A DNA stretch of 64,000 bases from Candidatus Doudnabacteria bacterium RIFCSPHIGHO2_02_FULL_42_25 (GTDB lineage: Bacteria > Patescibacteriota > Doudnabacteria > UBA920 > O2-02-FULL-48-8). Every line of letters begins with the position of its first letter. Positions within the stretch are counted from its first letter, which is position 1. Below are positions 25,440 to 26,318 of this stretch, in pieces. The notes under the pieces are model-generated. The model was given only the letters and a program-made list of their open reading frames with translations. It searched no databases and was not told the DNA's origin. The stretch is taken from NCBI GenBank assembly GCA_001777665.1, contig MFEQ01000004.1, positions 129,331 through 193,330 of the forward strand. Reading direction: 5' to 3'. Made by a program: the position numbers and the translations under genes.

Positions 25440-26318
25440 TTACGTAAGCGATTTCTCTCTTTGTTCGAAATGGTTATACAAACTGATCCATTGCTCAATG
25501 CTAAGATCTTGTGGTCGCAAGCTGGGATCAATTCCAGCTTTCTTTAACATTTCTAAATCCTTAATCGTATTTTTGAGTTGTTTTCGTTTAGATGCAAATC
25601 CGGTTTTCACAATTCTGAAAAATAATTTCTCATCTTTAATTTCCGGATTTTTATTTTTCGGAATAATTTTCAGTATTACTGAATCAACTTCTGGTGTCGG
25701 CCAGAATGATTGTTTGGGAACCAAAGCAACAATTTCTGCATCAGCGTGGACTTGCACAGAAATCGCTAAGATCGAAAGTTTCCCAGGGTTCGCAACGACG
25801 CGCTCCCCGACTTCTTTCTGAACCATCAAAACTAAAAATTCAGGTTTATTTTTTTGCTCGAGGAAATATTGAAACAACTTTGATGTTAGGTAGTAAGGAA
25901 TATTGGCAACAACTTTGTACGGACCGTTCAGTTCTTTTTCCAAATGGAATCGAAGAATGTCTTGGTTAAAAAGCGTAAGGACGTTATTCGTCTGCGCTGC
26001 GCGTATCGGTAACCGTCCGACGATACGCGTGGCGCTGCCATTTACCGTATTACGCATTTCATTTTCGAGGGTCCTAAAAAGTTTCTCATCCTTCTCAACA
26101 GCGATGACTTTGCCGGCGCGTTTCACTAACTCCTCCGTCAGAACTCCTAGGCCAGGGCCTACTTCCAAGACCGTATCGGTTTTTTTTATATCAGCTGCAT
26201 CAACTATTTTGTTCAGCGCATCTTCATCAATCAAAAAATTCTGACCCATGTAGTCTTTGGGTCTTAAATTTCTTGATTTCAAATAATTTTTTAAATCGAT
26301 TGGATCAAAAATCTTCAT
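25440..26318 (-). CDS. rsmA: 16S rRNA (adenine1518/1519-N6)-dimethyltransferase RsmA/KsgA, carrying an in-frame GC-rich insertion
   Basis: Motif I (LEVGPGLGVLT) and NIPY motif. The extra segment NTVNGSATRIVGRLPIRAAQT is encoded by the palindromic element at 25991-26048. Confidence 0.85.
   Translation of the reverse strand: MKIFDPIDLKNYLKSRNLRPKDYMGQNFLIDEDALNKIVDAADIKKTDTVLEVGPGLGVLTEELVKRAGKVIAVEKDEKLFRTLENEMRNTVNGSATRIVGRLPIRAAQTNNVLTLFNQDILRFHLEKELNGPYKVVANIPYYLTSKLFQYFLEQKNKPEFLVLMVQKEVGERVVANPGKLSILAISVQVHADAEIVALVPKQSFWPTPEVDSVILKIIPKNKNPEIKDEKLFFRIVKTGFASKRKQLKNTIKDLEMLKKAGIDPSLRPQDLSIEQWISLYNHFEQREKSLT
25991..26048. repeat. GC-rich palindromic element, family 2, in frame inside rsmA
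   Basis: tctgcgctgcgcgtatcggtaaccgtccgacgatacgcgtggcgctgcca. A related copy sits at 40229-40283. Confidence 0.65.

Follow-up and report, generated by a model that had tools for sequence, protein, structure and literature searches.

How has one short palindromic sequence come to lie both inside the coding region of rsmA and in the spacer between infC and rpmI of the same bacterial genome, and what kind of element is it? The window, which is the whole stretch of DNA analysed here, covers 64,000 nucleotides of Candidatus Doudnabacteria bacterium RIFCSPHIGHO2_02_FULL_42_25 (assembly GCA_001777665.1, contig MFEQ01000004.1, positions 129,331 to 193,330). Its GC content is about 40%, and its RsmA, IF3 and neighboring proteins are closest to those of Candidatus Doudnabacteria MAGs, which belong to the CPR/Patescibacteria. 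A first-pass annotation, made from the sequence alone, described a 58-nt self-complementary element that adds about 20 residues to RsmA, together with a sibling copy with an inverted centre between infC and rpmI, and proposed that the latter could act as a terminator or attenuator of the IF3-L35-L20 operon. The observation itself is confirmed, because both palindromes are present at the positions given. The motif ACGCGTATCG, with up to one mismatch, occurs only at the four arm positions in 64 kb, against 1.5 occurrences expected by chance. An inverted-repeat search extends each hairpin to arms of 27-28 nt. A profile built from the arms of relatives hits exactly these four arms in the window and nothing else, with E values of 1e-8 to 1e-10.

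The element is, however, larger than first described. The family consensus carries information for about 34 nt on each side of the centre, and the consensus and the empty sites of relatives give 81 nt at each site, so that the 58-nt palindrome is only the inner part. The insert in RsmA is 27 codons rather than about 20, and adds a net 23 aa relative to the closest insert-free ortholog. The parts of the two copies are as follows.

25440-26318, minus strand: the host gene rsmA (16S rRNA dimethyladenosine transferase, 292 aa; Pfam RrnaAD, E = 1.7e-55; homologs are Candidatus Doudnabacteria RsmA).
25974-26054, minus strand: copy 1, an 81-nt short-form element in frame in rsmA, exactly codons 89-115 (RNTVNGSATRIVGRLPIRAAQTNNVLT); the sense strand reads from A-arm to B-arm, and the centre is in the minority 'flop' orientation.
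26021-26054, minus strand: A-arm of copy 1 (CGTAATACGGTAAATGGCAGCGCCACGCGTATCG), encoding RNTVNGSATRI.
26009-26020, minus strand: 12-nt centre of copy 1; the sense strand reads TCGGACGGTTAC, the reverse complement of the usual GTAAnCGTnAGA.
25974-26008, minus strand: B-arm of copy 1 (CGATACGCGCAGCGCAGACGAATAACGTCCTTACG), encoding (P)IRAAQTNNVLT; in the structural model its outer end forms the start of a beta-strand in RsmA.
40217-40297, plus strand: copy 2, an 81-nt short-form element inserted into the last sense codon of infC, with a 1-nt ambiguity at the junction; it fills the infC-rpmI spacer except for 9 nt, reads from A-arm to B-arm on the plus strand, and has the centre GTAAACGTGAGA in the majority 'flip' orientation.
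40222-40224, plus strand: the present infC stop codon (TAG), which lies inside the A-arm of copy 2.
40298-40309, plus strand: remnant of the original junction (CATAAATAC) followed by the rpmI ATG.

Each copy consists of two 34-35-nt arms around a 12-nt centre. The A-arm is GCGTnnnnCGnTnnAC-GGCAGCGC-nn-CGCGTATCG and the B-arm is CGATACGCG-nn-GCGCCGAC-GAATAACGnnTAACG. The two arms are not equivalent, because the A-arm has ..(T/A)AC-GGCAGCGC whereas the reverse complement of the B-arm has ..TTC-G(T/G)CGGCGC, and every element therefore has an orientation. Between the two copies, the arms match at 28/35 and 26/35 positions. Read from A-arm to B-arm, the 12-nt centres match at 3/12 positions directly and at 9/12 as reverse complement, and hence the inverted centre noted in the first-pass annotation is real. 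Across the family, 18 elements have the orientation of copy 2 and five have the opposite one; of these five, one locus among those retrieved from other genomes and metagenomes (L numbers below), L066, carries its cargo gene reversed and another, L093, is a weak call.

In register, 70% of the 35 arm positions form Watson-Crick or G-U pairs, against 21-42% when the register is shifted. From the centre outward, the arms form a perfect 9-bp core, a 1-2-nt mismatch, a 4-bp GCGC helix, invariant A·C and G·A mismatches, and further short helices, resulting in a long imperfect hairpin. Covariation is not informative because the paired columns are almost invariant, and so the hairpin is supported by complementarity and by the shifted-register control but not by compensatory changes. 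The invariant mismatches make the B-to-A strand of copy 2 fold better (-43.6 kcal/mol, z = -5.4) than the A-to-B strand (-38.9 kcal/mol, z = -4.1). The sense strand of rsmA folds no better than shuffled sequence (z = -0.6).

Are these sequences insertions? RsmA orthologs are mostly 265-280 aa, and most of them, including the closest one (73% identical, from GCA_025450795.1), lack the segment. The same assembly also supplies the closest IF3 (92% identical; UvrD is 87% identical) and has neither copy. Its infC stop codon and rpmI start codon are 1 nt apart, and the gap is 1, 4 and about 9 nt in three further related loci, compared with 82 nt in the window. These empty sites were obtained through IF3 homologs, as tblastn of IF3, L35 and L20 against the first 88 retrieved loci found nothing. 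Removal of 81 nt from the window gives ...CAG ACG AAA GCA TAA ATAC ATG, so that IF3 would end in ...QTKA followed by a 4-nt spacer. This ancestral-looking terminus agrees with IF3 C-termini generally, and relatives end in ...GPQSKQ, ...GPQSKA or ...GPQSK. The element therefore landed in the last sense codon of infC, and now supplies the last two residues of IF3 (G and V, in whole or part) and its stop codon. No target-site duplication longer than 1 nt is visible at this junction, which is the only one that can be reconstructed, and no target preference was seen beyond A/T-rich flanks.

The element belongs to a dispersed family. The first-pass annotation had set a search for further copies and a comparison with RsmA orthologs as tests of its claim, and many further copies were found. 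A right-arm pattern with 20 specified bases gave 12 hits among one genome from each of 185,579 species, where about one was estimated by chance. All of them were in Doudnabacteria, Parcubacteria or unclassified MAGs, with four in one MAG and three in another; up to 4-6 copies occur in the sampled parts of single MAGs. A left-arm pattern in metagenomes gave 66 loci. Those on contigs of 40-53% GC have the matching right arm at the expected distance, whereas those on contigs above 58% GC do not and are chance hits. A left-arm scan of viral contigs gave six hits, all one-armed chance matches in contigs of 58-67% GC, a right-arm scan of viral contigs gave none, and the full-length element has no blastn match in phage or plasmid records. 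In total, about 31-35 distinct copies were counted, all of them in Doudnabacteria/Parcubacteria-type contigs. The centres fall mainly into three classes, of 12 nt (81-nt elements, including both window copies), 43-57 nt (elements of about 115-125 nt) and 438-448 nt (about 520 nt), and centres of 16-28 nt and of 129 nt, the latter with another repeat nested inside, also occur. An apparent excess of centre lengths divisible by three disappears when each length class is counted once. There are no nearly identical copies, and the two window copies differ at 20-25% of arm positions, so there is no sign of a recent burst. A search with the 33-aa insert peptide against 1.84 billion representative proteins gave no hit at E up to 0.001, but the query is too short for that database and the result says nothing about how many proteins host the element.

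In the 438-448-nt class, the arms enclose an ORF of about 130-150 aa that matches PF05635 (23S rRNA intervening-sequence protein, IVP; a four-helix bundle related to Avd) with E = 2.6e-17, as seen in L007, L042 and L066. Because these loci had been retrieved through the arms, the test was repeated from the protein side. Of the 120 best IVP homologs, chosen without reference to the arms, 54 end in ...DDTR(S/G)A(D/A)E or a close variant. That tail is the B-arm CGATACGCGCnGCGCCGACGAATAA read through to its own TAA, and the IVP stop codon is thus part of the right arm. Among homologs whose DNA was examined, chosen by the extent of their contigs, L092 and L093 have the A-arm upstream and the B-arm downstream. 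L094-L096 come from a genome of only 28-30% GC; the arm profile finds their B-arm, and a diverged A-arm is recognizable by eye. In L092 the sequence reads CGCGTATCG-GTAAACGTCAG/GCGTTAAGCGT-ATG...IVP...CCGCCGTCAG/A-CGATACGCG, and a deletion between its two CGTCAG repeats would give exactly the short-form centre GTAAACGTCAGA found in L061, and nearly that of copy 2. The long forms retain the leader and trailer but not the ORF. IVP is under strong purifying selection, with pN of 0.10-0.15 against pS of 0.82-1.0, which is saturated. The arms remain almost invariant across the same comparisons, so they are constrained cis elements.

Besides RsmA (the window, L002 and L003), the family sits in frame in a Y-family polymerase (DinB, IMS; L006 and L015), a UvrD helicase (L009) and a Peptidase_S74-domain protein (L028). 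These copies are always read as (F)NGSAARIG...TIRAAxxNN. In the A-to-B direction the other two frames are closed by stop codons in 25/25 and 23/25 copies, and 17 of the 25 ORF-less copies carry stops even in the frame that genic copies use. Every genic copy is stop-free and a multiple of 3 nt long, whereas the lengths of other copies are not constrained to triplets. This is what selection on translated genic copies predicts. Translation of the insert, which would yield peptides from NGSATRIVGRLPIRAAQTNN, is inferred from this conservation of reading frame. Of the 20 copies that could be oriented relative to transcription, 16 are A-to-B in sense (p = 0.012), and most intergenic copies are wedged within about 10 nt of the flanking ORF ends of co-directional genes, like copy 2. 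In the AlphaFold model of the window's RsmA, mean pLDDT is 86 but residues 93-111 score below 50, and the element-encoded ends join helix 78-91 and strand 114-117. This suggests that the insert is a disordered surface loop. Solved KsgA/RsmA structures have no equivalent segment.

The rsmA loop and the equivalent DinB loop appear to be hot spots. Other RsmA orthologs carry unrelated palindromic families at the same loop (RDPESSSGL, SPSP/TPPT), and the window's DinB carries a different GC-rich insert at the site where L006 and L015 carry this family. The window also has in-frame palindromic inserts of other families in uvrD, dinB and an msrB-like gene, so that the phenomenon looks common there. 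The four lineages with this family in rsmA fall into four different clades of a rough neighbor-joining tree, which fits an old insertion with repeated loss as well as repeated gain. Either a permissive-site filter or insertion of elements into one another would explain the pattern.

The 58-nt palindrome is likely to be the core of an 81-nt, GC-rich, non-autonomous selfish palindromic insertion element. What the analysis demonstrates is that an 81-nt unit is present at two unrelated sites and absent from both in the closest relative, that it belongs to a multi-copy family restricted to CPR lineages, that its arms are shared with an IVP-carrying form, and that genic copies keep one open frame. 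It is by inference that the 115-125-nt and 81-nt classes are regarded as internal-deletion derivatives of the full-length class, copied or moved in trans by whatever acts on the arms, with insertions persisting only where they are harmless. Movement itself is part of this inference, and the candidate factor is IVP together with host functions, as no transposase is seen. In this view, the rsmA copy is a tolerated passenger translated as 27 residues because only one sense frame is stop-free. The infC-rpmI copy would likewise be a passenger that donated a new stop codon, pushed two formerly abutting genes 82 nt apart with a hairpin of -39 kcal/mol between them, and may disturb the coupling of rpmI to infC; any effect on L35/L20 expression would be a by-product rather than a designed function. 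The inverted centre would reflect flip-flop of the segment between the perfectly inverted 9-nt cores, presumably by recombination or template switching. That IVP acts on the arms is speculative. No IVP gene lies within the 64-kb window, and because the centre of these elements is itself a site where other repeats nest (L006 and L009), the IVP gene could in principle be a passenger rather than the parent.

The interpretation given in the first-pass annotation is thus supported only in part. A repeat family, an in-frame insertion in RsmA that the closest ortholog lacks, and a sibling with an inverted centre at infC-rpmI all hold, but the terminator or attenuator role is not supported, and the 81-nt extent, the donated infC stop codon and the link to IVP-carrying elements had been missed. 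A regulatory hairpin of the infC-rpmI-rplT operon, whether terminator, attenuator or processing site, with the rsmA copy being incidental, remains an unlikely alternative. The hairpin is stable in the infC-rpmI transcript, it sits exactly between two genes of an operon that is autoregulated through RNA structure in other bacteria, and a long duplex could be a substrate for RNase III, as rRNA intervening sequences are (PMC4990558). However, no T-tract follows the hairpin, which is followed by CATAAATACATG, and a terminator scan calls no terminator-like site at 40217-40306. No family in Rfam 15, including ribosomal-protein leaders, matches at the gathering threshold, and none matches at E up to 1 for either the short or the long form. 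The hairpin is absent from this junction in the four related loci where the genes abut, and is therefore an insertion and not a conserved regulator, and the same sequence occurs inside coding regions and at about 30 unrelated places. Both a canonical intrinsic terminator and a known Rfam RNA are rejected. Removal of the insert at the RNA level by hairpin cleavage and ligation, so that RsmA is made without the extra 27 residues, is very unlikely. The architecture does match that of rRNA intervening sequences, an inverted-repeat stem with or without an IVP ORF, but the pattern of open frames and triplet lengths is expected only if genic copies are translated, the hairpin is weak in the rsmA sense strand, and bacterial rRNA intervening sequences are excised without religation (PMC4990558).

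An ordinary MITE mobilized by a conventional transposase encoded elsewhere, with the IVP gene as a passenger that landed in its centre, is also possible but improbable. The element is small and multi-copy, has terminal inverted repeats and no ORF, unrelated repeats do nest in the centre, and an rve-family transposase gene occurs near infC in one relative (L091). On the other hand, the reconstructed junction shows no target-site duplication, the IVP-arm association is systematic and persists while synonymous sites are saturated, the IVP stop codon is part of the arm, and no transposase gene was found between such arms in about 475 kb of related loci. A native, conserved part of RsmA that resembles the intergenic sequence by coincidence is refuted. 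Although the outer end of the B-arm encodes NNVLT, which aligns with the native strand xNxKLxL of other RsmA proteins, most orthologs lack the segment, and the same 81-nt unit occurs at infC-rpmI and in DinB, UvrD and intergenic sites of other genomes.

A more far-reaching reading, which is not excluded but is doubtful on present evidence, is that hairpin-flanked elements carrying an IVP gene are a distinct, still unrecognized class of mobile element in Patescibacteria. The Avd-like pentameric four-helix-bundle protein would recognize the conserved, asymmetric arms, as DNA or RNA hairpins, and promote copying or insertion without a classical transposase. PF05635 proteins are related to Avd, the accessory protein of diversity-generating retroelements (PMC10053308), and the idea that an intervening sequence is a mobile element whose ORF serves mobility is old (Ralph and McClelland 1993, as cited in PMC4990558). 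Classical 23S rRNA intervening sequences and these in-gene miniatures would then be two outcomes of the same element, which would answer the roughly 30-year-old question of what intervening sequences and their ORF are and supply the missing parent for in-frame repeats of the kind found in Rickettsia. Selfish palindromes living inside protein-coding genes have essentially been a Rickettsia curiosity of unknown origin and mechanism, and the present finding shows the same phenomenon in the Candidate Phyla Radiation. For the first time in the literature consulted, the miniature repeats are tied to a longer, gene-carrying relative, and the near-invariance of the arms points to a sequence-specific interaction. 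No description of this family or of such elements in CPR bacteria was found in the literature searched, which was incomplete. The family also matters for the annotation of CPR genomes, because it causes odd protein length variation, shifts stop codons, as in infC here, and inserts strong hairpins inside operons.

How does the element compare with known systems? REP/BIME elements are likewise GC-rich imperfect palindromes present in many copies between co-directional genes, but REPs are 20-40 nt, extragenic and tied to a Y1 transposase (RAYT), whereas the present element is 81 nt or longer and also occurs inside genes, and no RAYT was seen in the loci examined. Bacterial MITEs (Correia, ERIC, nezha and others; PMC10969869) share with it small size, terminal inverted repeats, a non-coding and multi-copy nature, an origin, inferred for the present element, as internal-deletion derivatives of a longer element with the same ends, and the ability to make in-frame fusions. 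However, filled and empty infC-rpmI junctions, the only ones that could be reconstructed, differ by exactly 81 nt, with at most a 1-nt ambiguity and no target-site duplication, the only ORF of the longer element with the same arms encodes a PF05635 four-helix-bundle protein and not a known transposase, and the whole element is one hairpin rather than two short terminal repeats. The architecture resembles that of 23S rRNA intervening sequences of Leptospira, Coxiella and Salmonella (PMC4990558), in which a stem of terminal inverted repeats encloses either nothing (about 100 nt) or a PF05635 ORF of roughly 130 aa (about 450-750 nt). Their distribution is also sporadic, and they have long been suspected of being mobile, with the ORF possibly needed for mobility. 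Intervening sequences lie inside helix 25 or 45 of 23S rRNA, whereas there is no rRNA in the window or in six related loci (L006, L007, L010, L013, L042 and L066), which include three cargo-bearing ones. The copies examined sit in protein-coding genes and in spacers inside operons, the genic ones appear to be translated rather than excised, and IVP is under strong purifying selection here while the Coxiella ORF is decaying. Rickettsia palindromic elements (RPE; Ogata et al. 2000, as reviewed in PMC10969869) are short palindromic repeats of roughly 100-150 bp dispersed in a small genome, many of them inserted in frame in unrelated housekeeping genes, read in one conserved frame and placed where the protein fold tolerates them, and no transposase is known for them. 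The present element, of 81-125 nt in its short forms, is GC-rich in an AT-rich genome of an unrelated host lineage, has a centre that can flip, and has a gene-carrying full-length relative of a kind not known for RPEs. Functionally, with its in-frame, one-frame and tolerated insertions, it behaves like an RPE, and it is regarded here as working like one rather than as a member of that group.

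GC-rich palindromes of other families are also present in the window, and some of them are inserted in frame in protein-coding genes.
27201-27260, in the uvrD/pcrA ORF 26305-28347 (- strand): a different GC-rich palindrome of the CCTGCCCGCC...GGCGGGCAGG family, adding 14 aa in frame (HPPATPASWLAWRAG).
24663-24726, at the 5' end of, or upstream of, ORF 23738-24691: a further copy of the CCTGCCCGCC...GGCGGGCAGG family.
47387-47437, in frame in an msrB-like ORF 47259-47681 (..HGTRLPTPDAAGIGGQVHRIEV..): another copy of the same family.
45166-45235, in the dinB/IMS ORF 44622-46139 (- strand): a third kind of GC-rich palindromic insert.
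63092-63148, next to a tRNA gene (63198-63269): a GC-rich palindrome (CCCGCCTGCCGGCGAGGCAGGC...).

The UvrD protein of the closest relative, which is 87% identical, lacks the 14-aa insert. The insert in DinB is located at the same loop where DinB of two related loci, L006 and L015, carries the 81-nt element family. This loop is a recurrent insertion site. In the alignment of RsmA orthologs, many Doudnabacteria RsmA proteins carry unrelated low-complexity or palindrome-encoded inserts (RDPESSSGL, SPSPR..., IASSPP...) at two loops (columns about 85-156 and 260-315), and the protein lengths range from 253 to 355 aa. L006, a Doudnabacteria contig that also carries the element, contains a group I intron at positions 224-516 (Rfam RF00028, 67.7 bits).

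No Shine-Dalgarno-like sequence precedes rpmI (window 40298-40306), either here or in relatives where rpmI abuts infC. rpmI may depend on termination-reinitiation, which the 81-nt insertion would disturb unless the hairpin brings the stop and start codons back together.

Tandem arrays of arm-like units of about 43 nt (..GGTAAACGGCAGCGCAGCGCGTAGCGGGAA..) lie at positions 2570-3700 of L042, a related locus, next to a copy that carries the gene for the 23S rRNA intervening-sequence protein (IVP). The arms can evidently also amplify head to tail. Among the IVP homologs P0241-P0360, P0284 also has an N-terminus encoded by the A-arm (MSNGSVARFGKR..). More distant IVP homologs in this set end in related but different tails (..NDTGSDNANE.., ..NDTSRDAV). 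This suggests that there are sister arm families, each paired with its own IVP subgroup.
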